Part shown: piece by piece, positions 4,101 through 42,754 of the stretch
Position numbering within the stretch: the first letter of the stretch is position 1
How the letters are laid out: each line of letters starts with the position of its first letter
Source: Marsupella aquatica
Lineage: Eukaryota > Plantae > Marchantiophyta
Direction: 5' to 3'
Assembly (NCBI GenBank): GCA_973895155.1
Contig: OZ316896.1
Span: forward strand, 23,471,067-23,518,499
Length of the DNA: 47,433 nt
Translations under genes and position numbers: made by a program
The notes under the pieces: generated by a model
What the model saw: the letters and a program-made list of their open reading frames with translations, nothing else
The model's database searches: none
Told to the model about the DNA's origin: nothing

Positions 4101-4916
4101 CTCTGCTGCTCGGCTGGCTTCTTTGGTGCCGCCGACCTCGTTCTTTTTGCCGGGGTGGCTTCATCGTTGACGGCTCCCTTCCTCTTCATCTCTGCTGCCG
4201 TGGAGGTTTCTCCTAGCACCGTTGCCTGGGTCCACCTTTCCGTGCTACCCTTTAATTCCCAGTGTATGTCGTTGCAGTTCTTGATGGCCTCTCGGATGCC
4301 GACGACGCTGTCCTTGCAAAACAGAAGATCGTCGAGTTGATTGGAAGTAGGCGTCCACAGGAACTCGTCCTTGATGAGTTCGCCTCCTAAGAAAGCCGTC
4401 TTCTACAGCTCCCACAATCGAGCGAGCTCCTGCCGTTCTCGAGCTGCCCTTTCTGACTCCTCGTCCTCGTAAGTCTTGATGTACTCAGTTGCCCGTTCGA
4501 ACAGGCATCCCCAGAAATGTGCCGCTTGATTGACGTTGCTCATACCCTCCTTAGGTTGATCGTCGGTATCTACTCTCTCCCCGAGTGCTTGCCTAAGCAG
4601 CTGACAGTAGTTGGCCTCCCGTAGTCGTCTGCCTAGTTCGTGCTCGCAAATGAGCCACCATCTCCTGCAAGCGCTCCTTACCCCTCTCCTCTGCCGGTCC
4701 TTCTTCCCGTTGATCCTTCCTAGCCGCCGACGCTTAACGCGCCCTAACCCTAATCGGGTTTTCACCCTCAGCCTTACCTCCGGCCTCTGCCCGGGTTCCA
4801 TGGTTGCCCCTAATTGTTTATATTTTCCTTGTTTTGTCACTATACTAAGGTGTTCCTAGGGTGCCTTCCTGCTTTACCCACTTAACCGGCCGAGTGATTC
4901 CTGTCTAGGCATCACA
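1191..4916 (-). mobile_element. Giant LTR, intact TG end at 4916, truncated at 1191
   Basis: Minus strand starts TGTGATGCCTAG at 4916 with no PPT before it; its flank is an older diverged LTR copy; near-identical to 20736-24485. Confidence 0.9.
1202..4801 (-). pseudogene. LTR-encoded coiled-coil ORF with one nonsense change (CAG>TAG at 4403-4405)
   Basis: ORF-track pieces 4403..4840 and 1202..4219 are in frame and match 20812..24474. Confidence 0.85.
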
Positions 4917-6703
4917 GAAGGACGACATGCTCAGTCAAACATACGAAAAGATGAATAAGATGGAGTTTGATGTTGTCCACGAGCTCAACAAGGAGCTAAG
5001 GGAAACCCGGTAGGAAGGGCGGCCTTGCAAAAGGAGTTGGAGGACACCCGGGGGGAGTTGGACGAGACTCAGGAGGAGTTAGAGGACATCGTGCGGAAGG
5101 TGGAAAACTTGCAGCGACGAAAGTCTAGCCGAGGAAAGGAAGTGCCCGGCTACACCAAGTAGACCCCCGGTGGCAACGACGAGGTTGCCAGGTGTGGTAC
5201 TGGCCGAAAGACTAGCCGAGGTACCCTCACCCTTGCCAAAAGTAATGAGCAAGGGGAAGATGTTGGCTGCCTTGGAAGGGAAGGACAGAAAGAAGCGAAA
5301 ACCTGTCGGGTCAGGAGTCAACACACTTCCCCAGGCCACCGTGGCCGAGGTAGAGAGCATGGCACCGGCCTTATGCGAGGTCATGGCTGTGAAGGTGGCA
5401 GTATTATAAGTCGGCCAAGATGACCAGTTGGGAGCCGCCATGACAAGAGTGGACTCAAGGTTGTCAATCATCGATAGGCATCAACCCCAACCTTGGGAAG
5501 AGGAGACAACCCGCCTTGTAGGACGAACCTATGAGGAAGACAACTACAGCGAGGAGGGGGATGTCGGCACTAACAAAGCCGATGCCGGGACTACCAATGC
5601 CGATGCCATAGTAACGGTCCCACCACTTCTGCAGGCCGGGGCGGCAGCCAAAGCCAAATTAAGACGAGGCCGGGGTTGGACCAGATAACGCCGAGGACAG
5701 GTTGACCCAATCAAGAGCATGTAATCTGTCAGAGGATGAACTTACGGCATTGGCCGCAAAAGGAGGATTAGGGGCGTCCATTGGGGATGAGCCACCACTG
5801 GCATGACGGTGGTGGAGGGTCGTCCCTTTTAGGGAGGGCAGACGTGGGGGAGGGAGGCGTGAGTGGGCAAGGCAAGCGCAAACCTCTAGAATTAAGATTA
5901 GGATCAGGACCAAGAGGCGGCCCTGACACTTAGATTAGTGGAATTGTGGATCTGTTGGTAAGAGCAACACTTGTGCTCTTGCCCCGTTGTACATAGGCAG
6001 ATTACAATTAGAATAGATTAGGCTTACGTTGCAATGAATTGGTAGGTGAGTTTCCAGGATAAATACCTGTGCAACGGGGAGTTCAGGCCTTTTTTCTTAA
6101 GCAAGTTTTTAGTGCACCAGCAAGACTGAGATCATTTAGTAAAAGAAGGTCTCGGTTAGTTATACAGTGAATTTTGTGTATATTCATGTTTCCTCATACC
6201 CATGAGCTGAATAGAGTTGGCCTTCCGGCTTAGTTCGCAGATCTTGTGTATGAGAAGTATTGTTTGTATGAGAGTTTCACCAAGTATAACTTAGTCAGTA
6301 AAAGTCATTTTTCTATTTGTGTGTCGCATCAACTTGTATGAAGATTGCCCACACCAACTATAGGAGAGAAGGGGAGTAAGAAAAGTCACAAGAAGCAGTG
6401 AGAGTTGGATGTGTCGAGCTGAGAGAGGTCTTAGCGGCTACCCAAGCCAATTGGGCATCATTCTGGGGGCGGAATCCAAACATAACTGAAGGAAGACCGA
6501 AAGGAGAGGATAAGGAGAGGCATAGAGTAAGTTGGCAACATACCTCATGACCCGATGAAGGATCTGTCCAGTATATGTGGGTAAGAAATTAGCAGCGTCT
6601 CATGCCGATGAGCCACGGAACCGAACTTGGCAAGACCAAAACCGATAGGAATCGGCTTGTTCTGGGAGGTTCTTGGGTCCAAAGGGCCATGGGACGCACC
6701 ACA
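4917..6703 (+). mobile_element. Older, diverged copy of the giant LTR (degenerate ORF 3' end plus LTR core), ending CACCACA
   Basis: Collinear similarity to about 23679-25394 (GAAGGACGA.ATGCTC..., TTTTAGGGAGGGC, GAGAGTTGGATGTGTCGAGCTGAGAGAGGTC, CCATGGGACGCACCACA) with many substitutions, indels and stops. Confidence 0.85.
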
Positions 6704-8520: not shown

Positions 8521-8569
8521 GCAATTTCATCAGTTATCAGTGACTGATATCAGTCACCGACATTTTTTT

Positions 8570-17345: not shown

Positions 17346-17399
17346 GACTTTGCGTCTAGGTAAAGCAAGTTTAGGGTGTCCATTAGGCCAACTGACAAG

Positions 17400-20600: not shown

Positions 20601-20850
20601 TGTAGCAAGGATCAGGCTCAATATTTGTCAGAGAGCCAATTCAAAGTTATCACCAACACCTCCTGTCCTGATGTGTCATCTCGGAGAGGCTCTCCTAGGT
20701 CTGACCTTGTGTAATATGCCATTTTAGAGCCTCTCTGTGATGCCTAGACAGGAATCACTCGGCCGGTTAAGTGGGTAAAGCAGGAAGGCACCCTAGGAAC
20801 ACCTTAGTATAGTGACAAAACAAGGAAAATATAAACAATTAGGGGCAACC

Positions 20851-23800
20851 ATGGAACCCGGGCAGAGGCCGGAGGTAAGGCTGAGGGTGAAAACCCGATT
20901 AGGGTTAGGGCGCGTTAAGCGTCGGCGGCTAGGAAGGATCAACGGGAAGAAGGACCGGCAGAGGAGAGGGGTAAGGAGCGCTTGCAGGAGATGGTGGCTC
21001 ATTTGCGAGCACGAACTAGGCAGACGACTACGGGAGGCCAACTACTGTCAGCTGCTTAGGCAAGCACTCGGGGAGAGAGTAGATACCGACGATCAACCTA
21101 AGGAGGGTATGAGCAACGTCAATCAAGCGGCACATTTCTGGGGATGCCTGTTCGAACGGGCAACTGAGTACATCAAGACTTACGAGGACGAGGAGTCAGA
21201 AAGGGCAGCTCGAGAACGGCAGGAGCTCGCTCGATTGTGGGAGCTGCAGAAGACGGCTTTCTTAGGAGGCGAACTCATCAAGGACGAGTTCCTGTGGACG
21301 CCTACTTCCAATCAACTCGACGATCTTCTGTTTTGCAAGGACAGCGTCGTCGGCATCCGAGAGGCCATCAAGAACTGCAACGACATACACTGGGAATTAA
21401 AGGGTAGCACGGAAAGGTGGACCCAGGCAACGGTGCTAGGAGAAACCTCCACGGCAGCAGAGATGAAGAGGAAGGGAGCCGTCAACGATGAAGCCACCCC
21501 GGCAAAAAGAACGAGGTCGGCGGCACCAAAGAAGCCAGCCGAGCAGCAGAGCAGGAGGCAGGGAGAAGCCGAAGAGGAGGAGGTCGATCCCATCAAGGCC
21601 ATTCCAACCAGGGATGACACCTGGAAGGGCTGGGCGGCAACCCTACCGGTGGAGGTGCAACTACATTTTGCACGGGAGGAGGATGCATGCTTTACGGCCA
21701 TGCAGACCAAGAAGTACCAAGGCTTCATGGCCGGATCCGGCTTGGAGGCCTTTGTAAGATTACCATGGCTGAAGCCGGAGGTACCGGAGTCAGACCTATT
21801 AGAATTCGTGGGGTCATGGGAACCCGAGACCAATTGCACGAGGATATATGGGAAGGATTTCTATCTTACTCCCAAGGTGATTGCCGAAGTGTTTGGCTTG
21901 CCGATGGGCAATAAGACCAAAGTTGATACCAGGAAGACCTTGCCTGACAAGGAGTTCCGGTCGTTCCCCGGGCCATCAACGAAGAATGGCTTCTTCCGGA
22001 ACACCTGCACCAACCCGCACATAGGAGAGATGATCGACTTCTTGCGGGTGACCATGCATTGTAACTTGCCGAGGGCAGAGATCGGCAAGGCACAGGTCTA
22101 TCTGGCAGAAAGGCCAGACCCAAGCCGGGACTACAACGGGTACCTCCTCAACCAATTGAAGAAGATCTTAAAGGAGGAGCAGCAGGTAATTGGCATGGGG
22201 AGCGTGTCGCGGCTTGGCTATCACATGCCGCTGTTGTGCCGGTATGCCAGAGGTCAGACTTTTGCCCCGGTACTTCCCCTGCAGGTAAGGGCACCCGAGG
22301 AAGCTCCAACGCCGAGGCCGTTGGCTGAGAAGCCTCAACCACCTGTTAGTCCTACGATCGAGCAGGTGTTTAGGCCCAGGAAGGAAGACTTGCCGATGCA
22401 GCAACCAGGCATGCAGAGTCTGCTGAAACTACTGGAGAAAGAAAAGAAATCGGCATCGGCAACAACAACGGCAACGGCAACAATGCAGGACACTACTACA
22501 GAGGTAGGCCTACACCAGCTCACAAGAGAAAACCCCTTTGCTGGAGACAAGGAGAGAATCAGGCCGGAATCCAAGCCAGGTGTTCGAATGTACGTGGGAA
22601 CCTCAAGCTCCGAATCTGAGGCAGAATTGCCTGAAGCTCCTACCGAGGAAGAGGAGAGGGAGAAGCCGGAAATCCAAGAGGTAGAGGAGGCAGTGGAGGA
22701 CTGCAGCCATGATAATTCCGGCTATGGGTCGGACCATCACGTTCCAGGAGTAAGGACCTGTGGCCGGTTTGTCCCCACACTTCCAAGGGTAGTGCGAGGG
22801 GACCCCAACCAGCAGAGTAGCCCTGAGTCTCCCCCACCAGATGTTGCTCCCCCGAGCTTCGACGGCATAAAACAGACGGTGCAGGAATTTCAGGAGCGAA
22901 TCAAGCAGGAGGAAGAGGCCGCCCTGGCTAAGGAAAAGGATTTACCAGGAGGAGATTGGCCGGAGGACATCAGGCGGCTAGCCGAAAAAGGAAGCAAACC
23001 TCTAGCCACGATTGAAGAGATCCGCAGGACGGCTTGGGAGCAGAGGCCACGATGGGCGATGCCGATCACTTCTACTTACTCCACCTACGCTAAGAATAGA
23101 GCCATGGAGTATGGTGAGATGTGTGGGGAACTTGCGCTCGGCATCTTTGGAGAGGAGTTGGAGGTAGGACCCTTTTTCCATAGGGAGCAGTTGGAGAAGC
23201 ACCAATTAGAAGAAGCGGTGGCTTTAGAGAGAAGCAAGAAGGACGAGGTCATTCGGCGGCTTAGGAGGATGGGAGCCGAGATTGAAGATCTAAGGGCGGC
23301 CAAGAAAGCCCAAGATGAACTGCGGATTAAACGACATGAGCTGAACATCATGCAGGGGCAGTTGGACGCCGCGCAGGCTGATAATCAGAATATCAAGGAT
23401 AAACTGACTCAGACGCAGGAAGAGTTGGCCGACACGATCAAAGAAAGGGAAAAGTGGAAGCAAGAGCTGAAGAATACAGAGGAGGCCCACATAACAGCCA
23501 ACAGCCGGGCCATGGCGGAGACCCAAAGAAAGGAATGGGCGTTGAAAGGGGAGCTCGAGAAAATCCGCGGAGCCCTTGAGCAGAAGGAGGTCGAGTTAGG
23601 GAAATCCTATCAAGGGATTATGGCGCTGCAGCAGGAGCTTGCGTCCCTGACGGCCAGCTTCAAGGCCGACCTAAGGGAGAAGGACGAGATGCTCGAACAG
23701 ACTTACGCCAAGATGAACCAGATGGAGTCTGTCATCATTGCAGAGCTCGACAAGGAGCTAAGAGCAACCCAGGAGGAGAAGGCTACCTTGAAGAAGGAAT

Positions 23801-24474
23801 TGGAGGAAGCCCACAGGGAGCAGGAGGAGGCCAAAAACGAGCTGGAGGGGGCACGTAAGGACCTGGATGAAACCCAAGAGGAGTTGGAGGAAATCACGAG
23901 GAAGATGGAGAACCTACAGCGGCGGGCCGACAACCAAACAGAGCGGCTGAAGAAACAAGCCGCAGTATTTAAATGCTTAGCTGCAGCGGGTCCATCTCCT
24001 GTTGGGACAAACCAGTTACCAGGGGTGGTAATTGCCGAAGGACAAGCCGCGCCACCTGCACCAGTGCCGGAGGTAAGTGGGAAGGGGAAGGGACCAGCTG
24101 CCGAGCCACCAACGAAGAAGAAGCGGAAACCTTCAGGGTCAAGGAGTAATACGACTTCACAGGCCGTGGTGATCAAGGAGGTAGACCCAACACCGACCCC
24201 AGACAGGGTCACGGCTAGGGATCCAACTACCCTAGGGGAAGGGGAAGCCGAAGCCGTGAGAGTGGCTGAAGCCGAAGCCGTGAGAGTGGCTGAGGCCGAA
24301 GCCGTGGGTATTGCTGAGGCCGGTGTCGAGGCTGAAGCCGAAGGTGGACCCAGTCAGGCCGAGGGAGAGTTGACTCGGTCAAGGGCAGGTAATCTGTCAG
24401 TAGGCGGGCCAACGGCAGTGGCTGAGGAGGAAGTGTTGGGGGCGTCCATTGAGGATCCACCACCGGTGTCGTGA
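20851..24474 (+). CDS. Intact LTR-encoded protein, 1207 aa from the first ATG: plant-TE-type N-terminal domain, long coiled coil, NLS, acidic repeat tail; function unknown
   Basis: Open frame 20812..24474; ATG in GCAACCATGG context; E/K/Q/L heptad-rich region; PTKKKRKP; no clear transmembrane segment. Confidence 0.85.
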   Translation: MEPGQRPEVRLRVKTRLGLGRVKRRRLGRINGKKDRQRRGVRSACRRWWLICEHELGRRLREANYCQLLRQALGERVDTDDQPKEGMSNVNQAAHFWGCLFERATEYIKTYEDEESERAARERQELARLWELQKTAFLGGELIKDEFLWTPTSNQLDDLLFCKDSVVGIREAIKNCNDIHWELKGSTERWTQATVLGETSTAAEMKRKGAVNDEATPAKRTRSAAPKKPAEQQSRRQGEAEEEEVDPIKAIPTRDDTWKGWAATLPVEVQLHFAREEDACFTAMQTKKYQGFMAGSGLEAFVRLPWLKPEVPESDLLEFVGSWEPETNCTRIYGKDFYLTPKVIAEVFGLPMGNKTKVDTRKTLPDKEFRSFPGPSTKNGFFRNTCTNPHIGEMIDFLRVTMHCNLPRAEIGKAQVYLAERPDPSRDYNGYLLNQLKKILKEEQQVIGMGSVSRLGYHMPLLCRYARGQTFAPVLPLQVRAPEEAPTPRPLAEKPQPPVSPTIEQVFRPRKEDLPMQQPGMQSLLKLLEKEKKSASATTTATATMQDTTTEVGLHQLTRENPFAGDKERIRPESKPGVRMYVGTSSSESEAELPEAPTEEEEREKPEIQEVEEAVEDCSHDNSGYGSDHHVPGVRTCGRFVPTLPRVVRGDPNQQSSPESPPPDVAPPSFDGIKQTVQEFQERIKQEEEAALAKEKDLPGGDWPEDIRRLAEKGSKPLATIEEIRRTAWEQRPRWAMPITSTYSTYAKNRAMEYGEMCGELALGIFGEELEVGPFFHREQLEKHQLEEAVALERSKKDEVIRRLRRMGAEIEDLRAAKKAQDELRIKRHELNIMQGQLDAAQADNQNIKDKLTQTQEELADTIKEREKWKQELKNTEEAHITANSRAMAETQRKEWALKGELEKIRGALEQKEVELGKSYQGIMALQQELASLTASFKADLREKDEMLEQTYAKMNQMESVIIAELDKELRATQEEKATLKKELEEAHREQEEAKNELEGARKDLDETQEELEEITRKMENLQRRADNQTERLKKQAAVFKCLAAAGPSPVGTNQLPGVVIAEGQAAPPAPVPEVSGKGKGPAAEPPTKKKRKPSGSRSNTTSQAVVIKEVDPTPTPDRVTARDPTTLGEGEAEAVRVAEAEAVRVAEAEAVGIAEAGVEAEAEGGPSQAEGELTRSRAGNLSVGGPTAVAEEEVLGASIEDPPPVS

Positions 24475-24494
24475 CGGTGCAAGGGCGCCGTTCC

Positions 24495-24515
24495 TTTTAG
24501 GGAGGGCGGACGTGG
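24495..24515 (+). other. Internal relic PPT and putative ancestral LTR start (TTTT-AGGGAGGGCGGA-CGTGG)
   Basis: T-run plus purine tract about 20 nt after the ORF stop; CGTGG is one change from TGTGG, the inverse of the terminal CCACA; present in every copy that spans this point, including the relic. Confidence 0.55.
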
Positions 24516-24963
24516 AGGGAGGAGGCGTGAGTGGGCAGGGCGGGCACGGATCTCCACGTTTAGGATTAGGATCAGAACCAGGAGCGGCCCTGACACTTAG
24601 CTTAGTGGGATTGCGGTCCCACTGGTAGGAGCAACACTTGTGCTCCTGCCTTGCTGTACATAGGTAGATTCGGGCAAGTAGATTACTGTTAAGTAGATTA
24701 GGCTTACGATGCAAAGAATGGCGGATCCACTACCAGGATAAGTACCTGGGCAGCGGGGAGCTCAGGGCCTCTTCTTTAGCAAGTTTTTAGTTTGCACCAG
24801 CCGGGCTGGGATCAAGTAGTACGAGAAGCTCTCGGTTAGTCATACAGTGACCCTTGTGTATATTCATGTTTCCTCATGCCTAAGAGCTGAATAGAGTTGG
24901 CCTCACGGCTTAGTTCGCAGAACTTGTGTATGAGATGTACTGTTTGTATGGCAAGTGCATGGT

Positions 24964-24986
24964 ATGACTCAGTCAGAATGAGTCAT
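24964..24986 (+). promoter_or_regulatory. Inverted pair of GCN4/AP-1-type motifs (ATGACTCA-N7-TGAGTCAT) in the LTR
   Basis: Seen directly; present in the young LTR copies, degenerate in the relic. Confidence 0.4.
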
Positions 24987-25189
24987 TTTGCTATTTGTGT
25001 GTCGCATTAACTTGTGTGAAGAGTGCCCACATCAACAGAAGGAAGGAAAGTAAGCAGGGGAGTGAGAGTTGGATGTGTCGAGCTGAGAGAGGTCTTAGCG
25101 GCTTAACCAAGCCTATTGGGGATCATTCCGGCGGCGGAATCCAAACATACCTAACAAGACGGAGGGGAAGACAGGGGAAGACAGGGGAA

Positions 25190-25204
25190 GGCCTATATTA
25201 GGCC
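25190..25204 (+). promoter_or_regulatory. Putative LTR TATA box (GGCC-TATATTA-GGCC)
   Basis: TATA-like motif about 200 bp before the LTR end, after GA-rich repeats. Confidence 0.4.
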
Positions 25205-25394
25205 GGCTACGTATCTCATGACCCGATGAAGGATCTGTCCAGTATATGTGTGTAAAATGTTAATAGTAGTAGTAGAAGGTTAGCAGCGTCCCATGCCGCT
25301 AAGCCGCGGAAACGGCCTCGCCAAGCGTGAAACCGCGGGAATCGGCTTGAGCTGGGGGGTTTCTTGGGTTTAGGGAGCCATGGGACGCACCACA

Positions 25395-26422
25395 GTAATC
25401 TTACAAAGGCCTCCAAGCCGGATCCGGCCATGAAGCCTTGGTACTTCTTGGTCTGCATGGCCGTAAAGCATGCATCCTCCTCCCGTGCAAAATGTAGTTG
25501 CACCTCCACCGGTAGGGTTGCCGCCCAGCCCTTCCAGGTGTCATCCCTGGTTGGAATGGCCTTGATGGGATCGACCTCCTCCTCTTCGGCTTCTCCCTGC
25601 CTCCTGCTCTGCTGCTCGGCTGGCTTCTTTGGTGCCGCCGACCTCGTTCTTTTTGCCGGGGTGGCTTCATCGTTGACGGCTCCCTTCCTCTTCATCTCTG
25701 CTGCCGTGGAGGTTTCTCCTAGCACCGTTGCCTGGGTCCACCTTTCCGTGCTACCCTTTAATTCCCAGTGTATGTCGTTGCAGTTCTTGATGGCCTCTCG
25801 GATGCCGACGACGCTGTCTTTGCAAAACAGAAGATCGTCGAGTTGATTGGAAGTAGGCGTCCACAGGAACTCGTCCTTGATGAGTTCGCCTCCTAAGAAA
25901 GCCGTCTTCTGCAGCTCCCACAATCGAGCGAGCTCCTGCCGTTCTCGAGCTGCCCTTTCTGACTCCTCGTCCTCGTAAGTCTTGATGTACTCAGTTGCCC
26001 GTTCGAACAGGCATCCCCAGAAATGTGCCGCTTGATTGACGTTGCTCATACCCTCCTTAGGTTGATCGTCGGTATCTACTCTCTCCCCGAGTGCTTGCCT
26101 AAGCAGCTGACAGTAGTTGGCCTCCCGTAGTCGTCTGCCTAGTTCGTGCTCGCAAATGAGCCACCATCTCCTGCAAGCGCTCCTTACCCCTCTCCTCTGC
26201 CGGTCCTTCTTCCCGTTGATCCTTCCTAGCCGCCGACGCTTAACGCGCCCTAACCCTAATCGGGTTTTCACCCTCAGCCTTACCTCCGGCCTCTGCCCGG
26301 GTTCCATGGTTGCCCCTAATTGTTTATATTTTCCTTGTTTTGTCACTATACTAAGGTGTTCCTAGGGTGCCTTCCTGCTTTACCCACTTAACCGGCCGAG
26401 TGATTCCTGTCTAGGCATCACA
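25395..26422 (-). mobile_element. 3' LTR of left unit, first 1028 bp only, with the 5' part of the LTR ORF (ATG at 26307)
   Basis: Inverted match to 20736-21763. Confidence 0.9.
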
Positions 26423-26437
26423 TAGCTCCCCACTTAA
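26423..26437 (-). other. Polypurine tract TTAAGTGGGGAGCTA directly before TGTGATG
   Basis: Purine-rich run abutting the LTR TG end; absent before the flank-joined copies at 4916 and 20736. Confidence 0.75.
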
Positions 26438-29400
26438 TTGTGAAGCGTCCTCGCAAACAACTTCATCTTCGTCCATATAGTATTTCTTGAGGCGGTCATA
26501 ATGGATGCGAACTGGATATACCTCTCCCGTAATGTTGGCCAATTGCACGGAGCCATTGGGGAACATCATGGTTACTCTAAAGGGTCCTAACCAGCGAGTG
26601 TAAAGCTTTCCTGGAAACCTACTATACCTACTGTCATAAAGTAGCACAAGATCACCGGTATGAATACTAACTACTTTTAACCTTTTATCATACTGCTGCT
26701 TCATGATATTCTGTCTATATTCTACTCTCTCGGCTGAAATCATTCTCGCTTCCTCTAAAGCTTCTAACCTATATTCTCGCTCCTTTAGGCTCTCCTCCGC
26801 TGAGGCTCTTTCCTCAATTGTAACTTGAAATGTCGGTATCTCAAGTTGCGTGGGTACCAGGGCTTCTTGTCCAAAGGTTAAGAAGAAGGGTGTATGACCG
26901 GTAGTGGATTTATAGGCCAGATTGTAAGCAAAAACAGCAGCAAACAATTTATCATCCCAATCGAGTTTGTTCTGAGCTACTGTCTTGTTCAATATCTTTC
27001 CTATGATTCCGTTTGCTCGTTCTGTCAACCCGTTTGCCTTTGGATGGTAGGGAGTAGTAGGCCTATGTTTAACTAAATACTGCTCATTTAAACGACTAAT
27101 TATATCATTCAAAAAATGGGTTCCTCTATCACTAACTAATTCTAGGGGTGCTCCATACCTGGTGAAGATCTGCTCATACATGAATCTAGCCGTAGTAATT
27201 GCATCATCCTTCGTTGTTGGTCTGGCCTCTACCCATTTAGTTGCATAATCCGTAGCCAGGATTATGTACTTGTTCCGTCGAGGGTGGGTCAGTGGTTTCA
27301 GAGGTCCAATGTAATCAATACCCCACTTCTCGAATGGTGCCAGAGGTAGAATAGGGTGCAGTGGATGCCTGGTGGACGCCCTTGGTCCGCCCGCTCGTTG
27401 ACAAGGATCGCATTGTTTGATAAACTGATAGACATCTTTGTGCAAGGTGGGCCACCAGTAACCGGCATTTAATATCTTCTTAGACGTGGTTACTGGGGCA
27501 AAATGTCCTCCGGCCTCCTCTCCATGCATGGCCCGTAGGACTCGTTTTACCTCTCTCTTCTCCAAACACCTTTGAATCGTGCCGTTGATTCCATGCTTGT
27601 GCAGTATGCCTTTAATGCACTGATACTGTCTGACCTTCCGCACAAAGACTGTGGCTTGCTCTCGGCTTAATCCTGGCTGTAATCTGGAAGTGCTGAGAAA
27701 TTGTAAAATCTCAGGGTACCATGTACCAGCTATTTCCACAACGAATAGCTCCTCGTCGGGGAATCGATCATCGATGCAATCCGTGGCAGGTTTACCTGTG
27801 ATCCTTGAAAAGAAGTCGGCATTGGCATGTAACTTTCCTGGCTTGATCCTCAGCTCATAGTCAAACTCCTGTAATAGCAAAATCCATCTTGCTACTCTGC
27901 CTGTAAGGTCCGGCTTATTGACTAGGTACTTCAAACTTTCATGATCAGTATGAAAGATTACCTTGTACCCTAGTAAATAATGCCTAAACTTTTTACAAGA
28001 ATAAATGACTCCTAATGCTTCTCTTTCCGTGGTAGAGTAGTTCCGTTCGGCATCGGCAAGCTGACGGCTTGCGAAGTATATGGGATGGTCCCTTCCTTTC
28101 TCATCCAACTGACTTAGTACTGAGCCAATACAGAAGCCCGAGACATCTACAAAAACATGAAAATCTTTGTTCCAGTCCGGTGCTATCATGACTGGGGCCT
28201 CTACTAACATCTGCTTCAATTCTACCACCGCTGTGACTCGTTCGGGTGTGGGTTCGAAGTCTGCTCCTGCCTTGAGCATGTTGGTTAATGGTAAAGCTAG
28301 CTTGGCAAAATCCTTGATGAACCGGCGATAGTAACCAATGCATCCCAAGAAGGATCTTACATCCTTTATGTTCTTAGGTTGCATGATATCTAGCCATACT
28401 GCTAGCTTACCTTTGTCAATCTCAATGCCCTTCCTTGATACCTTGTGACCTAGTAGCACCCCCTCGGTTACTGCAAAAAAACATTTATCTGGGTGTAACT
28501 TGAGACCCACCTCCCTACATCTCATGAAGGTTTTCCTGAGGTATTTAGCATGTTTCGATGCCTTCCCGAATACTGCAAAGTCATCAATGAAGATTTCCAT
28601 GAACTTTCTCAAGTAATCATGAAAAATGTTCACCATTAATCGTTGGAACATAGCTGGTGCGTTGCAGAGTCCAAACGGCATACGATTGAAGACATAGATC
28701 CCCCATTCCGTGATGAAGGCCGTCTTGATTTGGTCTTCCTGCCGAATCCTGATTTGGTTATAACCAGAGTATCCATCCATGAATGAATATAGTTCATGAC
28801 TGGCTACCATGTCTAGTACCATATCAGTAACGGTAAAGGAAAATGGTCTTTTAATGTTGCTTCATTCAGCTTCCTGTAATCCTGACAAACCCGGATCTTG
28901 GGTTTACCATCGGGTCCAGCTTTCTTGGGAACTATCACAATTGGAGACACCCAGTCTGAATGCAGGACTGGAGTGATGAATCCAGCTTCCACTAGTTTGT
29001 CGATTTCTGTTTTGACCAGCAGGGAATACTTCGGGTTCATCCTTCGAATTGGTTGTCGAAATGATTTGGCTCCTAACATGAGATCAATTCGATGTTCCCC
29101 TAGTGTTGGATCTACGCCCTTTAGATCTTGGTGACTCCATGCAAACACATCCTGAAATTCAATCAATAAGTCACTGATCTCTTTCTCGAGCTCAGGTGCT
29201 AGGTTTCTCCCTAAGTTCAGTTCTCTTCCCTCTCCTAAGTCGAGCTTCCGATATTGCCGTGCTTGGATCATATTAATCTGCTTCTTCAAATTCGGGTCCA
29301 GTTCGGCTTCCAGTCTCTCTAATCTCATACCTCCATAAACTGGGATCTCGGCTGGACTAGCCGAGTCGGTCCCTTCCTTGGTGTCCATAGATTGTCCCCT

Positions 29401-29582
29401 TACCGGTCTATTCGGTTTTGAATTAGTGGTCGGCTCCCCTTCCTGCCTTGGCTCTGGATCGTGTCTGTTCATCTCATCCACCTCTTGCTCCTGAGAGTTA
29501 GGCCGCTGTGCTCTCTCGGCTTCTAATAGGGCCTCAATTTGTTCTGCCCTCGTAATCGGCTTGTATGCCGATCCCTTGGTAT

Positions 29583-31976
29583 TTAATTCCTTGCCGATGA
29601 TCGATGGCGTTGTGGACCCCGTCGGCTCTGCCACAACGCCTGCAGAAAATCCACTGTCCCTGCTACTGCTCCCCACTTAGCCGTTTCATCCAATTGGTCT
29701 ACATCCTTAACTTCCTCCGGAATTGCAGCTAAAAAGGTGGATTCTATTGTAAAGCAGTCCTCGACCTCTTCGTCTTCTTTTTCCAAGTCACCTTCCATTG
29801 GTTCTTGCCATAATCCGCTGGGGGGTACCTCTGGTCCAAAGACACCTTCTTCGGTTAGGTTAGTGAAGCATTCTAACCAACGTACCCATCTACTTCCCTT
29901 ATGCTTTTCCTACGGTCATCCTTAGTGTCCCAGGATACCGTGATAGAGGGGGTCCCGAAAGTGAACTGCTTTTTACCCCAATCTTCTATTACCTCGGCTA
30001 GGTACAGCCATGGCCTACCAATCAATAGCCGGAATGACGTAGGATTTACCGGCTTCATTACTACATAGTTAATGCTAAAGAAGATACCTCCTATCTCTGT
30101 CTTGATGCCGGTTAACACTCCCGTAGGAATGACCTGATATCCATTGGCCATGTTCAACACTCTTCCAGTCATCTCCGGTGTTAGACCCCACCCTTTTGCT
30201 GTTGAATCAATCATAATACATACCCCTGATCCTCCATCGATGGGTACCCGTAGTAATAATTCTCCTTGAATCATTAATGGTAATGCTGGGGCTCCTTGAT
30301 CTTCTTCTATCATTAGTACGTCGGATCTGGTTGCTACCTTGGGTAATCTCGGCTTGCCGAGAATAGCCTTCCTTAATTGCTTCCGGAAGTACGGGCTATT
30401 TTTCAATAGTTGACCTACTGTTGCCGAGACTCTAGATTCTAGTACATCTTTAGCCAGGTCATAGGGAACAATCGGCTTCTCTTCTGGTGGTGTTTCCGTC
30501 TTGGATTCGGCCAGTTTTGCCACGCTAGTCTCCACAGCTGTTGGGTCTTCCGAAGCAAACAATGCTTTTGCTCGTTTTACATCCTTGGCAATGGCTTCGG
30601 TATTCTCCAGGGTTTCTAATTCTCTTAGTTGTTCCTTAACACTAGCCGTAACAGAGGGGTAGAATAACTTAGGATGATCTCGATTGAAGTCGCTATCTTG
30701 TGAAGGATTGGTTTCACTGGTGGGCTCATGGCTTACCTGTATTGCCGGAGCCCTCCCTTCTCCTTCTGTTGATGTTGACGAAGAGTCGATCCTTTCCTCC
30801 GTAACCTTCCCTTTATTTTTGGCCAGCCCATCCCACCTTTCCTTCCTTCTGGTAGATCGAGTAGAGACCCGGTAGCAATCATGATCTAAATCCTCCTCTG
30901 AGAAGGTTGATAGGGCTTCGGCCTCATCATCAGATGGTACGAACTCTGCCTCGGCATCCTCTTGCCATCCTAGTTCGATGTGGTTGATTTGAACTCCTCC
31001 GGGGGTAGTACCTGGCGGTAAGATCTTGATCGGCAAAAGCTTATGATTTGCGGCCAGGCCTGCCAACCAAGTAGGACATTGCCCTAGCATATGACCTTCC
31101 TGTCGGCATCCCATACATAGCTGAGCTGGTTGTCCATCACCCTGTTTGCGTGCATTCGGGCATTCTCTAACAAAATGGCCAGGTTGACCACAATTATAGC
31201 ACGCCGCAAATCTTTGCACATTCGGCCTAGGAGGTACTGACGGGTTCTGAATAATCCGAGGATACATCTCTCCTGGATTGTTCCTTAACCCTGACCACAG
31301 AGATGCAGGTCTGTTGGATAGGTCTCGTGCTCCAGTCTCACTGATGCCGAAAACACTATCAGCGGCATCTCCCAAAAAGTACTCTACTTCTCCCTGACAT
31401 GGTCAGTTTCTGAAAGCGTTGCAAGAACTTCCTGAAGGATTTGTTCTCCTTGAACCGAAGTTGTCCCAACTTCAGCACTGCTAGTTCTGAAGTTCCAATG
31501 GGTCGAAACTCCTTAACAAAGAGTGTTTTGAAGATATCCCAGATGGCTTGATCTTCCACATCTAATGCTCTGTACCAAGGCCTAGCCTCACCCTTGAACA
31601 GGCCGGGAAGAATCTGCATCTTGATGGCCGATTCTCCATTTGCTGCAGCGGTTCCCTCGAAATCATCCAACCATTCGTCCGGATCCTCATCTCCTCTCCC
31701 ATGAAATGCCTTGTAATGTATGCGCGACCGCTGGCTCAATCTGGTCCCTGGCCTCTCGTCTGGCCGTGCCTCTGGTTCCCCCATGTCGGTTGGAGACTCA
31801 CTTCTCCTTACCGACTCTTCTTCTGGTATGTCTTCTTCGACGCCACTTCCAGTTTCGGAGCTACCAGCTCTTTCTGCCCCTCTCAGTCGCTGTGTATCAT
31901 GCCACCCGGCGAGCTGCTGCAGTCGAGCTCTCTCCTGTTGAATCACTCTTTCTTCCCTCGGCGTAAGGTCAGTCAT
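29583..31976 (-). pseudogene. gag: Gag-protease, left unit; 569-bp and 31-bp deletions
   Basis: Versus 39692-42685: junction at 31404/31405 lacks 41545-42113; 31 bp lost between CGTAC direct repeats near 29881. Confidence 0.9.
29593..29652 (-). promoter_or_regulatory. -1 ribosomal frameshift cassette (G_GAU_UUU + stem/pseudoknot), left unit
   Basis: Heptamer at 29646-29652 in gag phase, 5-nt spacer, stem GGCGUUGUGG/CCACAACGCC, loop GCCGA can pair with downstream UCGGC. Confidence 0.8.
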
Positions 31977-32023
31977 TACCTACGCTTCCGTTCTAACTTC
32001 ATATCTCACGGCTTAAGAAATGC

Positions 32024-32041
32024 CCCCTCCATCTAGCGCCA
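32024..32041 (-). other. Primer-binding site TGGCGCTAGATGGAGGGG (tRNA-Asn type)
   Basis: 4 T after the LTR CA end; about 17/18 match to the complement of plant tRNA-Asn(GUU) 3' end as I recall it. Confidence 0.8.
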
Positions 32042-32045
32042 AAAA

Positions 32046-35000
32046 TGTGGTGCGTCCCATGGCTCCCTAAACCCAAGAAACCCCCCAGCTCAAGCCGATT
32101 CCCGCAGGTTTCGTGCTTGGCGAGGCCGTTTCCACGGCTTAGCGGCATGGGACGCTGCTAACCTTCTACTACTACTATTAACATTTTACACACATATACT
32201 GGACAGATCCTTCATCGGGTCATGAGATACGTAGCCGGCCTAATATAGGCCTTCCCCTGTCTTCCCCTGTCTTCCCCTCCGTCTTGTTAGGTATGTTTGG
32301 ATTCCGCCGCCGGAATGATCCCCAATAGGCTTGGTTAAGCCGCTAAGACCTCTCTCAGCTCGACACATCCAACTCTCACTCCCCTGCTTACTTTCCTTCC
32401 TTCTGTTGATGTGGGCACTCTTCACACAAGTTAATGCGACACACAAATAGCAAAATGACTCATTCTGACTGAGTCATACCATGCACTTGCCATACAAACA
32501 GTACATCTCATACACAAGTTCTGCGAACTAAGCCGTGAGGCCAACTCTATTCAGCTCTTAGGCATGAGGAAACATGAATATACACAAGGGTCACTGTATG
32601 ACTAACCGAGAGCTTCTCGTACTACTTGATCCCAGCCCGGCTGGTGCAAACTAAAAACTTGCTAAAGAAGAGGCCCTGAGCTCCCCGCTGCCCAGGTACT
32701 TATCCTGGTAGTGGATCCGCCATTCTTTGCATCGTAAGCCTAATCTACTTAACAGTAATCTACTTGCCCGAATCTACCTATGTACAGCAAGGCAGGAGCA
32801 CAAGTGTTGCTCCTACCAGTGGGACCGCAATCCCACTAAGCTAAGTGTCAGGGCCGCTCCTGGTTCTGATCCTAATCCTAAACGTGGAGATCCGTGCCCG
32901 CCCTGCCCACTCACGCCTCCTCCCTCCACGTCCGCCCTCCCTAAAAGGAACGGCGCCCTTGCACCGTCACGACACCGGTGGTGGATCCTCAATGGACGCC
33001 CCCAACACTTCCTCCTCAGCCACTGCCGTTGGCCCGCCTACTGACAGATTACCTGCCCTTGACCGAGTCAACTCTCCCTCGGCCTGACTGGGTCCACCTT
33101 CGGCTTCAGCCTCGACACCGGCCTCAGCAATACCCACGGCTTCGGCCTCAGCCACTCTCACGGCTTCGGCTTCAGCCACTCTCACGGCTTCGGCTTCCCC
33201 TTCCCCTAGGGTAGTTGGATCCCTAGCCGTGACCCTGTCTGGGGTCGGTGTTGGGTCTACCTCCTTGATCACCACGGCCTGTGAAGTCGTATTACTCCTT
33301 GACCCTGAAGGTTTCCGCTTCTTCTTCGTTGGTGGCTCGGCAGCTGGTCCCTTCCCCTTCCCACTTACCTCCGGCACTGGTGCAGGTGGCGCGGCTTGTC
33401 CTTCGGCAATTACCACCCCTGGTAACTGGTTTGTCCCAACAGGAGATGGACCCGCTGCAGCTAAGCATTTAAATACTGCGGCTTGTTTCTTCAGCCGCTC
33501 TGTTTGGTTGTCGGCCCGCCGCTGTAGGTTCTCCATCTTCCTCGTGATTTCCTCCAACTCCTCTTGGGTTTCATCCAGGTCCTTACGTGCCCCCTCCAGC
33601 TCGTTTTTGGCCTCCTCCTGCTCCCTGTGGGCTTCCTCCAATTCCTTCTTCAAGGTAGCCTTCTCCTCCTGGGTTGCTCTTAGCTCCTTGTCGAGCTCTG
33701 CAATGATGACAGACTCCATCTGGTTCATCTTGGCGTAAGTCTGTTCGAGCATCTCGTCCTTCTCCCTTAGGTCGGCCTTGAAGCTGGCCGTCAGGGACGC
33801 AAGCTCCTGCTGCAGCGCCATAATCCCTTGATAGGATTTCCCTAACTCGACCTCCTTCTGCTCAAGGGCTCCGCGGATTTTCTCGAGCTCCCCTTTCAAC
33901 GCCCATTCCTTTCTTTGGGTCTCCGCCATGGCCCGGCTGTTGGCTGTTATGTGGGCCTCCTCTGTATTCTTCAGCTCTTGCTTCCACTTTTCCCTTTCTT
34001 TGATCGTGTCGGCCAACTCTTCCTGTGTCTGAGTCAGTTTATCCTTGATATTCTGATTATCAGCCTGCGCGGCGTCCAACTGCCCCTGCATGATGTTCAG
34101 CTCATGTCGTTTAATCCGCAGTTCATCTTGGGCTTTCTTGGCCGCCCTTAGATCTTCAATCTCGGCTCCCATCCTCCTAAGCCGCCGAATGACCTCGTCC
34201 TTCTTGCTTCTCTCTAAAGCCACCGCTTCTTCTAATTGGTGCTTCTCCAACTGTTCCCTATGGAAAAAGGGTCCTACCTCCAACTCCTCTCCAAAGATGC
34301 CGAGCGCAAGTTCCCCACACATCTCACCATACTCCATGGCTCTATTCTTAGCGTAGGTGGAGTAAGTAGAAGTGATCGGCATCGCCCATCGTGGCCTCTG
34401 CTCCCAAGCCGTCCTGCGGATCTCTTCAATCGTGGCTAGAGGCTTGCTTCCTTTTTCGGCTAGCCGCCTGATGTCCTCCGGCCAATCTCCTCCTGGTAAA
34501 TCCTTTTCCTTAGCCAGGGCGGCCTCTTCCTCCTGCTTGATTCGCTCCTGAAATTCCTGCACCGTCTGTTTTATGCCGTCGAAGCTCGGGGGAGCAACAT
34601 CTGGTGGGGGAGACTCAGGGCTACTCTGCTAGTTGGGGTCCCCTCGCACTACCCTTGGAAGTGTGGGGACAAACCGGCCACAGGTCCTTACTCCTGGAAC
34701 GTGATGGTCCGACCCATAGCCGGAATTATCATGGCTGCAGTCCTCCACTGCCTCCTCTACCTCTTGGATTTCCGGCTTCTCCCTCTCCTCTTCCTCGGTA
34801 GGAGCTTCAGGCAATTCTGCCTCAGATTCGGAGCTTGAGGTTCCCACGTACATTCGAACACCTGGCTTGGATTCCGGCCTGATTCTCTCCTTGTCTCCAG
34901 CAAAGGGGTTTTCTCTTGTGAGCCGGTGTCGGCCTACCTCTGTAGTAGTGTCCTGCATTGTTGCCGTTGCCGTTGTTGTTGCCGATGCCGATTTCTTTTC

Positions 35001-36705
35001 TTTCTCCAGTAGTTTCAGCAGACTCTGCATGCCTGGTTGCTGCATCGGCAAGTCTTCCTTCCTGGGCCTAAACACCTGCTCGATCGTAGGACTAACAGGT
35101 GGTTGAGGCTTCTCAGCCAACGGCCTCGGCGTTGGAGCTTCCTCGGGTGCCCTTACCTGCAGGGGAAGTACCGGGGCAAAAGTCTGACCTCTGGCATACC
35201 GGCACAACAGCGGCATGTGATAGCCAAGCCGCGACACGCTCCCCATGCCGATTACCTGCTGCTCCTCCTTTAAGATCTTCTTCAATTGGTTGAGGAGGTA
35301 CCCGTTGTAGTCCCGGCTTGGGTCTGGCCTTTCTGCCAGATAGACCTGTGCCTTGCCGATCTCTGCCCTCGGCAAGTTACAATGCATGGTCACCCGCAAG
35401 AAGTCGATCATCTCTCCTATGTGCGGGTTGGTGCAGGTGTTCCGGAAGAAGCCATTCTTCGTTGATGGCCCGGGGAACGACCGGAACTCCTTGTCAGGCA
35501 AGGTCTTCCTGGTATCAACTTTGGTCTTATTGCCCATCGGCAAGCCAAACACTTCGGCAATCACCTTGGGAGTAAGATAGAAATCCTTCCCATATATCCT
35601 CGTGCAATTGGTCTCGGGTTCCCATGACCCCACGAATTCTAATAGGTCCGACTCCGGTACCTCCGGCTTCAGCCATGGTAATCTTACAAAGGCCTCCAAG
35701 CCGGATCCGGCCATGAAGCCTTGGTACTTCTTGGTCTGCATGGCCGTAAAGCATGCATCCTCCTCCCGTGCAAAATGTAGTTGCACCTCCACCGGTAGGG
35801 TTGCCGCCCAGCCCTTCCAGGTGTCATCCCTGGTTGGAATGGCCTTGATGGGATCGACCTCCTCCTCTTTGGCTTCTCCCTGCCTCCTGCTCTGCTGCTC
35901 GGCTGGCTTCTTTGGTGCCGCCGACCTCGTTCTTTTTGCCGGGGTGGCTTCATCGTTGACGGCTCCCTTCCTCTTCATCTCTGCTGCCGTGGAGGTTTCT
36001 CCTAGCACCGTTGCCTGGGTCCACCTTTCCGTGCTACCCTTTAATTCCCAGTGTATGTCGTTGCAGTTCTTGATGGCCTCTCGGATGCCGACGACGCTGT
36101 CTTTGCAAAACAGAAGATCGTCGAGTTGATTGGAAGTAGGCGTCCACAGGAACTCGTCCTTGATGAGTTCGCCTCCTAAGAAAGCCGTCTTCTGCAGCTC
36201 CCACAATCGAGCGAGCTCCTGCCGTTCTCGAGCTGCCCTTTCTGACTCCTCGTCCTCGTAAGTCTTGATGTACTCAGTTGCCCGTTCGAACAGGCATCCC
36301 CAGAAATGTGCCGCTTGATTGACGTTGCTCATACCCTCCTTAGGTTGATCGTCGGTATCTACTCTCTCCCCGAGTGCTTGCCTAAGCAGCTGACAGTAGT
36401 TGGCCTCCCGTAGTCGTCTGCCTAGTTCGTGCTCGCAAATGAGCCACTATTTCCTGCAAGCGCTCCTTACCCCTCTCCTTTGCCGGTCCTTCTTCCCGTT
36501 GATCCTTCCTAGCCGCCGACGCTTAACGCGCCCTAACCCTAATCGGGTTTTCACCCTCAGCCTTACCTCCGGCCTCTGCCCGGGTTCCATGGTTGCCCCT
36601 AATTGTTTATATTTTCCTTGTTTTGTCACTATACTAAGGTGTTCCTAGGGTGCCTTCCTGCTTTACCCACTTAACCGGCCGAGTGATTCCTGTCTAGGCA
36701 TCACA
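32046..36705 (-). mobile_element. Shared middle LTR, 4660 bp
   Basis: Preceded by PPT (36706-36720), followed by PBS; TG...CA termini. Confidence 0.92.
32967..36590 (-). pseudogene. LTR-encoded ORF with two nonsense codons (36447, 34629)
   Basis: In-frame pieces of 60, 567 and 531 aa match the intact copy. Confidence 0.85.
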
Positions 36706-36720
36706 TAGCTCCCCACTTAA
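36706..36720 (-). other. Polypurine tract of right unit
   Basis: TTAAGTGGGGAGCTA abutting TGTGATG. Confidence 0.75.
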
Positions 36721-39691
36721 TTGTGAAGCGTCCTCGCGAACAACTTCATCTTCGTCCATATAGTATTTCTTGAGGCGGTCATGATGGATGCGAACTGGAT
36801 ATACCTCTCCCGTAATGTTGGCCAATTGCACGGAGCCATTGGGGAATATCATGGTTACTCTAAAGGGTCCTAACCAGCGAGTGTAAAGCTTTCCTGGAAA
36901 CCTACTATACCTACTGTCATAAAGTAGCACAAGGTCACCGGTATGAATACTAACTACTTTTAACCTTTTATCATACTGCTGCTTCATGATATTCTGTCTA
37001 TATTCTACTCTCTCGGCTGAAATCATTCTCGCTTCCTCTAAAGCTTCTAACCTATATTCTCGCTCCTTTAGGCTCTCCTCCGCTGAGGCTCTTTCCTCAA
37101 TTGTAACTTGAAATGTCGGTATCTCAAGTTGCGTGGGTACCAGGGCTTCTTGTCCAAAGGTTAAGAAGAAGGGTGTATGACCGGTAGTGGATTTATAGGC
37201 CAGATTGTAAGCAAAAACAGCAGCAAACAATTTATCATCCCAATCGAGTTTGTTCTGAGCTACCGTCTTGTTCAATATCTTTCCTATGATTCCGTTTACT
37301 CGTTCTGTCAACCCGTTTGCCTTTGGATGGTAGGGAGTAGTAGGCCTATGTTTAACTAAATACTGCTCATTTAAACGACTAATTATATCATTCAAAAAAT
37401 GGGTTCCTCTATCACTAACTAATTCTAGGGGTGCTCCATACCTGGTGAAGATCTGCTCATACATGAATCTAGCCGTAGTAATTGCATCATCCTTCGTTGT
37501 TGGTCTGGCCTCTACCCATTTAGTTGCATAATCCGTAGCCAGGATTATGTACTTGTTCCGTCGAGGGTGGGTCAGTGGTTTCAGAGGTCCAATGTAATCA
37601 ATACCCCACTTCTCGAATGGTGCCAGAGGTAGAATAGGGTGCAGTGGATGCCTGGTGGACGCCCTTGGTCCTCCCGCTCGTTGACAAGGATCGCATTGTT
37701 TGATAAACTGATAGACATCTTTGTGCAAGGTGGGCCACCAGTAACCGGCATTTAATATCTTTTTAGACGTGGTTACTGGGGCAAAATGTCCTCCGGCCTC
37801 CTCTCCATGCATGGCCCGTAGGACTTGTTTTACCTCTCTCTTCTCCAAACACCTTTGAATCGTGCCGTTGATTCCATGCTTGTGCAGTATGCCTTTAATG
37901 CACTGATACTGTCTGACCTTCCGCACAAAGACTGCGGCTTGCTCTCGGCTTAATCCTGGCTGTAATCTGGAAGTGCTGAGAAATTGTAAAATCTCAGGGT
38001 ACCATGTACCAGCTATTTCCACAACGAATAGCTCCTCGTCGGGGAATCGATCATCGATGCAATTCGTGGCAGGTTTACCTGTGATCCTTGAAAAGAAGTC
38101 GGCATTGGCATGTAACTTTCCTGGCTTGATCCTCAGCTCATAGTCAAACTCCTGTAATAGCAAAATCCATCTTGCTACTCTGCCTGTAAGGTCCGGCTTA
38201 TTGACTAGGTACTTCAAACTTTCATGATCAGTATGAAAGATTACCTTGTACCCTAGTAAATAATGCCTAAACTTTTTACAAGAATAAATGACTCCTAATG
38301 CTTCTCTTTCCGTGGTAGAGTAGTTCCGTTCGGCATCGGCAAGCTGACGGCTTGCGAAGTATATGGGATGGTCCCTTCCTTTCTCATCCAACTGACTTAG
38401 TACTGAGCCAATACAGAAGCCCGAGACATCTACAAAAACATGAAAATCTTTGTTCCAGTCCGGTGCTATCATGACTGGGGCCTCTACTAACATCTGCTTC
38501 AATTCTACCACCGCTGTGACTCGTTCGGGTGTGGGTTCGAAGTCTGCTCCTGCCTTGAGCATATTGGTTAATGGTAAAGCTAGCTTGGCAAAATCCTTGA
38601 TGAACCGGCGATAGTAACCAATGCATCCCAAGAAGGATCTTACATCCTTTATGTTCTTAGGTTGCATGATATCTAGCCATACTGCTAGCTTACCTTTGTC
38701 AATCTCAATGCCCTTCCTTGATACCTTGTGACCTAGTAGCACCCCCTCGGTTACTGCAAAAAAACATTTATCTGGGTGTAACTTGAGACCCACCTCCCTA
38801 CATCTCATGAAGGTTCCGTGATGAAGGCCGTCTTGATTTGGTCTTCCTGCCGAATCCTGATTTGGTTATAACCAGAGTATCCATCCATGAATGAATATAG
38901 TTCATGACTGGCTACCATGTCTAGTACCATATCAGTAAACGGTAAAGGAAAATGGTCTTTTAATGTTGCTTCATTCAGCTTCCTGTAATCCTGACAAACC
39001 CGGATCTTGGGTTTACCATCGGGTCCAGCTTTCTTGGGAACTATCACAATTGGAGACACCCAGTCTGAATGCAGGACTGGAGTGATGAATCCAGCTTCCA
39101 CTAGTTTATCGATTTCTGTTTTGACCAGCAGGGAATACTTCGGGTTCATCCTTCGAATTGGTTGTCGAAATGATTTGGCTCCTAACATGAGATCAATTCG
39201 ATGTTCCCCTAGTGTTGGATCTACGCCCTTTAGATCTTGGTGACTCCATGCAAACACATCCTGAAATTCAATCAATAAGTCACTGATCTCTTTCTCGAGC
39301 TCATGTGCTAGGTTTCTCCCTAAGTTCAGTTCTCTTCCCTCTCCTAAGTCGAGCTTCCGATATTGCCGTGCTTGGATCATATTAATCTGCTTCTTCAAAT
39401 TCGGGTCCAGTTCGGCTTCCAGTCTCTCTAATCTCATACCTCCATAAACTGGGATCTCGGCTGGACTAGCCGAGTCGGTCCCTTCCTTGGTGTCCATAGA
39501 TTGTCCCCTTACCGATCTATTCGGTTTTGAATTAGTGGTCGGCTCCCCTTCCTGCCTTGGCTCTGGATCGTGTCTGTCCATCTCATCCACCTCTTGCTCC
39601 TGAGAGTTAGGCCGCTGTGCTCTCTCAGCTTCTAATAGGGCCTCAATTTGTTCTGCCCTCGTAATCGGCTTGTATGCCGATCCCTTGGTAT

Positions 39692-42685: not shown

Positions 42686-42732
42686 TACCTACGCTTCCGT
42701 TCTAACTTCATATCTCACGGCTTAAGAAATGC

Positions 42733-42750
42733 CCCCTCCATCTAGCGCCA
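42733..42750 (-). other. Primer-binding site (tRNA-Asn type), right unit
   Basis: Identical to 32024-32041. Confidence 0.8.
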
Positions 42751-42754
42751 AAAA

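Follow-up and report, generated by a model that had tools for sequence, protein, structure and literature searches.

Evidence for a gene within a plant long terminal repeat: a 3.6-kb accessory reading frame with a predicted VANC21/plant-mobile-domain fold in a young Ty3/gypsy element

The sag gene of mouse mammary tumour virus (MMTV) is a retroviral gene located in the long terminal repeat (LTR), surviving mostly in solo LTRs (PMC4667437; for this and all papers cited below, statements refer to the available parts of the text). In plants, published accounts place the extra open reading frames (ORFs) of Athila, Ogre and Retand elements in the internal region, either ahead of gag or in the interval from pol to the 3′ LTR (PMC6317226, PMC7264820, PMC11728184); their domains include Athila ORF1 (PF03078), Transposase_32 (PF20167), the plant mobile domain (PMD, PF10536) and Transposase_28. 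VANC proteins bind short motifs and strip silencing from their own transposon family (PMC5735166), and VANC, MAIN-type PMD and DUF1985 domains are reported to be structurally related (PMC13547354, bioRxiv 2024.09.27.615353). We have analysed a stretch of 47,433 nt of contig OZ316896.1 from Marsupella aquatica, hereafter the window, in which a 4659-bp unit (TGTG...CACA) is very probably the LTR of a young Ty3/gypsy element, accessory gene included. The novelty lies in the unusual location of an accessory gene whose protein class is known, and in a specific functional lead that can be tested.

As in MMTV, the gene is LTR-internal and duplicated at both ends of the element; sag is kept in solo LTRs and has several possible promoters (PMC4667437). 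It encodes a retroviral immune superantigen and lies mostly in U3, whereas here a plant retrotransposon carries a 3.6-kb ORF for a soluble, predicted DNA-binding protein. With Athila, Ogre and Retand the locus shares a sense accessory ORF in a non-chromovirus Ty3/gypsy element and a profile link to the Transposase_32-like ORF of a related metagenome locus (L006), and LTRs of ~5 kb are known in that group; in contrast to those elements, the gene lies 3′ of the polypurine tract (PPT), inside the LTR, and its protein has no Pfam match beyond weak coiled-coil-type ones. The ORF0 of Retrosat2, RIRE3 and RIRE8, which are grouped together in grasses, also accompanies LTRs above 3 kb; it is a separate ORF upstream of gag-pol and not in the LTR (PMC3485330). 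VANC21 of VANDAL21 (PDB 9lnk/9lnj; PMC5735166) and the MAIN/MAIL PMD-C proteins resemble the product in the predicted fold of amino acids (aa) 270-475, in the coiled coil and in being transposon-encoded. VANC is found on Mutator-like DNA transposons with tandem target motifs and is called dicot-specific (PMC13547354), whereas the present protein has 8% identity to VANC21 and is encoded by a retroelement that lacks motif arrays and whose host is likely a liverwort.

The borders of the unit were read from its repeated copies. The features of the element in the window are given below, with RT, RH and INT for reverse transcriptase, RNase H and integrase, PBS for primer-binding site and TSD for target-site duplication.

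1..1190, plus strand: LTR copy A (LTR positions 3470-4659), its end joined to copy B at an inverted internal position
1191..4916, minus: LTR copy B (positions 1-3750), inserted in an older relative; stop at aa 133
4917..6703, plus: older-subfamily copy (~75% identical), ORF tail and core, with the same CACCACA end and a unique flank
20736..25394, plus: LTR copy C, 4659 bp, TGTG...CACA, no TSD
20830..20835, plus: sole TATAAA of the LTR, at position 95; candidate promoter of a Met87 product or A-rich 5′ untranslated region
20851..24474, plus: accessory ORF, confirmed, 1207 aa from Met1 (1121 aa from Met87)
21109..21495, plus: conserved N-terminal region, aa 87-215, with homologs P0125, P0127 and P0129
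21658..22275, plus: globular domain, aa 270-475, VANC21/plant-mobile-domain fold by structure prediction
23248..23970, plus: putative long charged coiled-coil region, about aa 800-1040, from weak coiled-coil-type matches and composition
24475..25394, plus: non-coding LTR core, ~0.9 kb, with TATA-like and UGUA-rich stretches
24487..24530, plus: purine-rich block 3′ of the stop codon, kept in the older copy, with a candidate relic PPT and, at 24511, a candidate relic LTR start (CGTGG)
25395..26422, minus: LTR copy D (positions 1-1028), truncated where copy C ends
26423..32045, minus: internal region 1, gag-pro and RT-RH-INT, with deletions
26426..26435, minus: PPT (AAGTGGGGAG) of internal region 1, 3 nt upstream of the LTR and following the lineage motif TT/CGCGAGGACGC
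32024..32041, minus: PBS-like TGGCGCTAG... of internal region 1, 4 nt after the LTR
32046..36705, minus: LTR copy E, full length, between the two internal regions; ORF stops at aa 48 and 654
36706..42754, minus: internal region 2, gag-pro (997 aa) and RT-RH-INT, with a 175-bp deletion
36709..36718, minus: PPT of internal region 2
42733..42750, minus: PBS-like site of internal region 2
42755..47159, minus: LTR copy F (positions 256-4659); ORF interrupted by stops, at aa 48 and at aa 681
47160..47433, plus: fold-back LTR fragment (positions 164-437)

The LTR start (TGTGATGCCTAG) occurs four times in the window, each time at the same TG base. Its flank is the ORF of the older relative at 4916 (minus) and a tandem-repeat region at 20736 (plus), which confirms the claim of an earlier note, made from the sequence alone, that two copies with unrelated flanks begin at one base; at 26422 and 36705 (both minus) it lies immediately 3′ of AAGTGGGGAG-CTA at the pol end, which is the PPT of both pol junctions. 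The LTR end (GGGACGCACCACA) was found five times, at the same CA in all five. At 32046 and 42755 (both minus), the two gag junctions, it is followed by TTTT-TGGCGCTAG, a PBS-like sequence which we take to be of the tRNA-Asn type; at 6703 (plus) it lies within the older copy, next to a unique flank; and at 1190 and 25394 (both plus) it abuts inverted internal LTR positions, 3750 and 1028 respectively. The PPT and the PBS behind the CACCACA end described in the note were recovered at two of two junctions each, and the TGTG...CACA termini that it names form an inverted repeat (8/10 matches, TG...CA). Copies D, E and F are direct repeats that flank two internal regions with the Pfam order gag-pro-RT-RH-INT, and the pol stop codon lies 12 nt inside the LTR. 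ORF sequence was present upstream of the 0.9-kb non-coding core in all five copies, so the observation that the core never occurs alone held as well. The young copies and fragments (six, plus the short fold-back piece) are 0.1-1.6% apart, and there is one older LTR copy. A full element would measure about 15.5 kb (~6.2 kb + 2 x 4.66 kb).

Logan contigs were examined from four runs (X1, X2, X3 and X6) with four species labels; contig counts are among those listed. Loose ends behind the LTR 3′ end were seen in all four runs, with low agreement: at least 5 contigs in X1 (agreement 0.58), at least 15 + 11 in X2 (0.41 and 0.40) and at least 3 in X3 (0.62), and at least one X6 contig passed the LTR 3′ end and ran into the PBS. 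The LTR 5′ start carried a non-pol flank in one X3 contig and one X6 contig. Summed contig depth, used as a pattern only, stepped up at 32046 and down at 36705, with no step near 32930. The median over the ORF was 3.5-4.2x that of the gag/pol side, and 3.6-5.9x over the core; 18, 18, 17 and 16 of the 18 ORF bins exceeded the highest internal bin in the four runs. Depth ratios greater than 2 are a hint that lone LTRs are in excess. The window junctions, the mixed contig flanks and the LTR-like depth of the ORF support the proposal of an LTR-internal gene with two copies in each element. The family was present in six runs with four species labels (word share 0.6-0.8), and is therefore common to several species or recently spread.

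The accessory ORF spans LTR positions 116 to 3739 and is intact in one of the four long copies (copy C), the rest carrying stops; the codon-48 stop of two window copies is the minority allele in all four runs. Comparison with the older copy over 154 codons of the ORF tail gave a dN/dS of 0.34, showing purifying selection on the gene. The young copies differ from copy C by 31 synonymous, 25 nonsynonymous and 5 stop changes, which are not independent (821 synonymous and 2800 nonsynonymous sites). A representative search returned 23 protein matches, of which one (P0142) was spurious and dropped, and a second alignment was made without P0128, P0134, P0140 and P0141, which have poor tails. Four of the nine domain homologs looked up are Calypogeia proteins. 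No match was obtained by a full-length homolog search at 663-2113 aa or a profile search at 1303-3720 aa, both weak negatives, and PDB sequence searches with the accessory protein gave no real match. The LTR-end motif had two chance phage matches in viral contigs and none in metagenomes, and a pol search of the viral contigs returned no match.

The domain at aa 270-475 is predicted, with good confidence, to adopt the VANC21/plant-mobile-domain fold. Its AF2 model, built from 21 sequences, reached a pLDDT of 84.6 and a pTM of 0.83. In the VIA structure comparison the top match was the VANC21-DNA structure (9lnk_A; Z 8.8, rmsd 3.9, 201/206 aligned), the second-best chain having a Z of 2.2 among 48,161 chains; Foldseek gave a TM of 0.51 for VANC21 and less than 0.2 for the others among the matches listed. 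Foldseek on a first, low-confidence model gave no match. The protein has basic patches resembling nuclear localisation signals and, from composition and weak matches, a coiled coil of ~240 aa. No membrane helix was found in it (maximum KD19 hydropathy, over 19 aa, 0.82), and an env-like protein was rejected on that ground. The predicted product is likely a nuclear protein that would bind element DNA and counter host silencing; we regard the anti-silencing role as such as slightly more likely than not. On its predicted fold the protein is of the plant-mobile-domain/VANC-type family, the same kind as the extra ORFs of Athila and Ogre, moved into the LTR. The interpretation in the earlier note is partly supported. 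It had set the gene apart from the Athila and Retand extra ORFs; this distinction stands for its position in the LTR and falls for the kind of protein, the shared accessory family having been missed.

Among named homologs, pol is closest to that of Calypogeia fissa (65-66% identity; 73% over the tree columns, support 100/99). The tree places it in a bryophyte/metagenome clade with Calypogeia (100/99), apart from the angiosperm rows, and the window pol groups with the L004/L011 clade at only 89/82. Pol has a single RH, no chromodomain, ~100 aa to the integrase zinc domain and an end ~20 aa past the integrase tail. Because Pfam found no additional RNase H in pol, membership of Tat/Ogre/Retand was rejected and the element is Athila-like rather than Tat under the criteria in the available text of PMC6317226.

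Related elements were collected as 80 metagenome loci via integrase, 11 of them judged by eye and all by profile and motif; only L003, L004, L006, L010 and L011 are informative on gene position. A profile-matching gene lies behind pol in four of the 80, namely L006, L003 and L010 (profile E 6.5e-6 to 1e-3) and, after one iteration, L011; L004 shows the start of a similar ORF, judged by eye. The L006 ORF matches Transposase_32 with an E of 2.5e-4, below cut-off. The LTR start in this lineage is marked by the motif, the PPT and TG. L003 and L006 have this combination downstream of the gene, as is canonical; L004 and L011 resemble the window element in having it upstream of a TATA box and the gene, with TATATA ~340-460 bp past PPT+TG. 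L003 is a complete collapsed element with a ~1-kb LTR (6572-7560), the gene in canonical position and an Athila-type PBS; its LTR starts GGGGAGCTA/TGTGATG, the same as the window element. A PPT-like tract directly behind pol was found in L003, L005, L006 and L010; for the tracts of L003 and L005, the best alignment is with the block that follows the stop of the window ORF.

Taken together, we consider it fairly likely that this is a young Athila-like Ty3/gypsy element whose 4659-bp LTR holds an accessory gene with a VANC21/PMD fold and a coiled coil, encoding a likely element-binding anti-silencer. Plus-strand synthesis would prime at the PPT directly behind pol, and everything downstream, the gene included, would therefore be duplicated at the two ends. 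The purine block behind the stop codon would probably represent the ancestral PPT and LTR start of a ~0.9-kb LTR. In the simplest model a purine tract stands on either side of the gene, and whichever of the two has a usable integrase end sets the LTR border, so that use of the upstream tract would leave the gene in the LTR; alternatively, a template switch could have joined the PPT of one family to the gene and LTR of another, giving the same structure. The gene probably lies in U3, genomic RNA presumably starting in the distal 0.9 kb. The protein may oligomerise through its coiled coil and act on chromatin like VANC. A bolder version, in which a VANC-type anti-silencing gene entered the LTR of a bryophyte Ty3/gypsy clade together with its own promoter, solo LTRs are stand-alone cassettes and VANC-like systems predate dicots, appears improbable to us. 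If true, many solo LTRs would keep making an anti-silencer for the whole family, and VANC-like systems would exist on retroelements as well as DNA transposons, not solely from captured MAIN.

Several observations weigh against the favoured explanation. Copy C has no TSD (CTCTC on the left, GTAAT on the right); the copy is therefore best read as a recombinant between two insertions, a rearranged single LTR or a misassembly, and a clean solo LTR at 20736 was rejected. No TSD pair or TSD-bounded solo LTR was seen in the window, which holds no other copy with both flanks. Summed contig depth is no copy number. Near the rival start (~32930), nothing but older-subfamily sequence appears in the rows listed, apart from one joint at a distance of 30 bp, in an X2 contig where the LTR end is joined to position 3806. 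As cases of a gene in the LTR, L004 and L011 are suggestive only, since their own LTR ends are off-contig and, in L003 and L006, a PPT-like tract behind pol does not coincide with the LTR start. Likeness to a relic PPT is modest, shuffles reaching the score in 17/200 cases for L003, 3/200 for L005 and 177/200 for L010, the last at chance level. As to the protein, Pfam gave no match for aa 270-475, DUF1985 and PMD included, the Foldseek match to VANC21 had an E-value of 2.8 at 8% identity, and an earlier, poorer model of the domain reached a Z of 4.0. VANC-style tandem target-motif arrays were not found in the element, a 10-bp x 2.8 repeat in the non-coding LTR being the only one of its kind (top 8-mer counts 7-8, against 5-8 in 32 simulations), and fold likeness alone shows no function.

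It is very improbable that the true LTR measures ~0.88 kb, from ~24511, with an ordinary extra ORF 3′ of pol and TGTGATG junctions that are breakpoints of rearrangement or assembly. The purine tract and CGTGG at 24490-24515, resembling the inverse of the LTR end, the layout of L003, which is exactly of this kind with its 1-kb LTR, and the heavy rearrangement of the window (fold-back, deletions) would suit it. However, the same TG base borders two unrelated flanks in the window and two in other runs, the lineage PPT motif stands at the pol end, PBS-gag follows the complete 4659 bp, and the depth steps lie at 32046 and 36705. On the window and the contigs listed, the 0.88-kb LTR was rejected as the present border. 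With the gene in the LTR, its protein might instead be a structural or targeting factor, acting in particle assembly or steering integration to chromatin or other copies, which we find doubtful. The lack of tandem arrays fits this role, as does the joining of LTR ends to internal LTR positions (two window junctions and three same-strand joints in X2 contigs), which suggests self-insertion, and Athila-domain proteins are described as predicted oligomers of unknown role (PMC13547354). Yet the one solved structure that matches the fold is that of a DNA-bound anti-silencer, PMD-C proteins are reported to act against silencing by Polycomb (bioRxiv 2024.09.27.615353), and high copy number alone also predicts self-insertion.

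The start of transcription bears on a further alternative, possible although on the unlikely side, in which a promoter at the 5′ edge of the LTR (TATAAA, position 95) places the gene in a very long R or gives it its own promoter; every LTR, solo or not, would then be a complete Met87-protein cassette, which can coexist with an anti-silencing role. The sole TATAAA in the 4659 bp favours such a candidate internal promoter and a Met87 protein, a telobox-like motif follows it, homolog P0127 begins near Met87, the TATATA of L004 and L011 is likewise upstream of the gene, and a UGUA-rich stretch lies 3′ of the ORF. On the other hand, the ACCATGG context of Met1 is ideal, the RNA start expected from the TATAAA falls downstream of this codon, the frame ahead of Met87 is open in the majority allele at codon 48 in all four runs, and a 4-kb R needs very long minus strong-stop DNA. 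Since Met1 is only 115 bp from the LTR edge, its context suggests that the full protein may be made from an upstream transcript, that is, from the 3′ LTR copy. The idea that solo LTRs survive as coding units hinges on this transcript versus the position-95 promoter; it found no backing in the window, where no TSD-bounded solo copy was seen and the Met1 context points to the upstream transcript.

Current practice regards plant LTRs as non-coding and lists the extra ORFs of plant elements as internal, and annotation that masks LTRs would miss such a gene. Searches of the literature, exact phrases included, found no plant LTR-internal gene, most subscription papers being outside their scope and REXdb supplements possibly listing some; the available parts of PMC7497039, PMC7466625, PMC12885004 and PMC9985172 hold nothing on the subject. 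A 3.6-kb gene in an LTR changes dosage (two per element) and fate (kept on recombination to a solo LTR). Through the fold match, the Athila-type extra ORFs, long without an explanation, gain a function that can be tested, and a plant that diverged early would have a VANC-like domain in one of its retroelements. Relatives in which the gene lies before or after the PPT form a natural series for shifts of the LTR border.

Neither internal region is intact: region 1 has 569- and 31-bp deletions and a 1-bp frameshift, and region 2 the 175-bp deletion. In region 2 the gag-pro and RT frames differ and overlap at 39692-39785, where a programmed frameshift or splice may operate; the matching stretch is partly deleted in region 1. 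At 1190/1191 and 25394/25395 an LTR end is precisely joined to inverted internal positions of another LTR. Joints of this kind suggest frequent self-insertion or autointegration. At 47159/47160, LTR position 256 (minus) is joined to position 164 (plus), either a true inversion or an assembly artefact.

The neighbouring element (8566-20735) carries a gene of the same domain family (10465-12285, minus; one internal stop, profile E 1.6e-6). Its broken ORFs at 13055-16837, which had no relevant Pfam match, are presumably Mutator-type transposase-like. Its non-coding stretches contain arrays of GAGAG(G/C)CTCTC, with 19 exact copies, at the following positions.

8759-9048: GAGAG(G/C)CTCTC array
14505-14774: GAGAG(G/C)CTCTC array
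17435-17650: GAGAG(G/C)CTCTC array
20357-20684: GAGAG(G/C)CTCTC array

The tandem-motif pattern described for VANDAL/VANC resembles these arrays of the neighbouring element, and not the LTR element.

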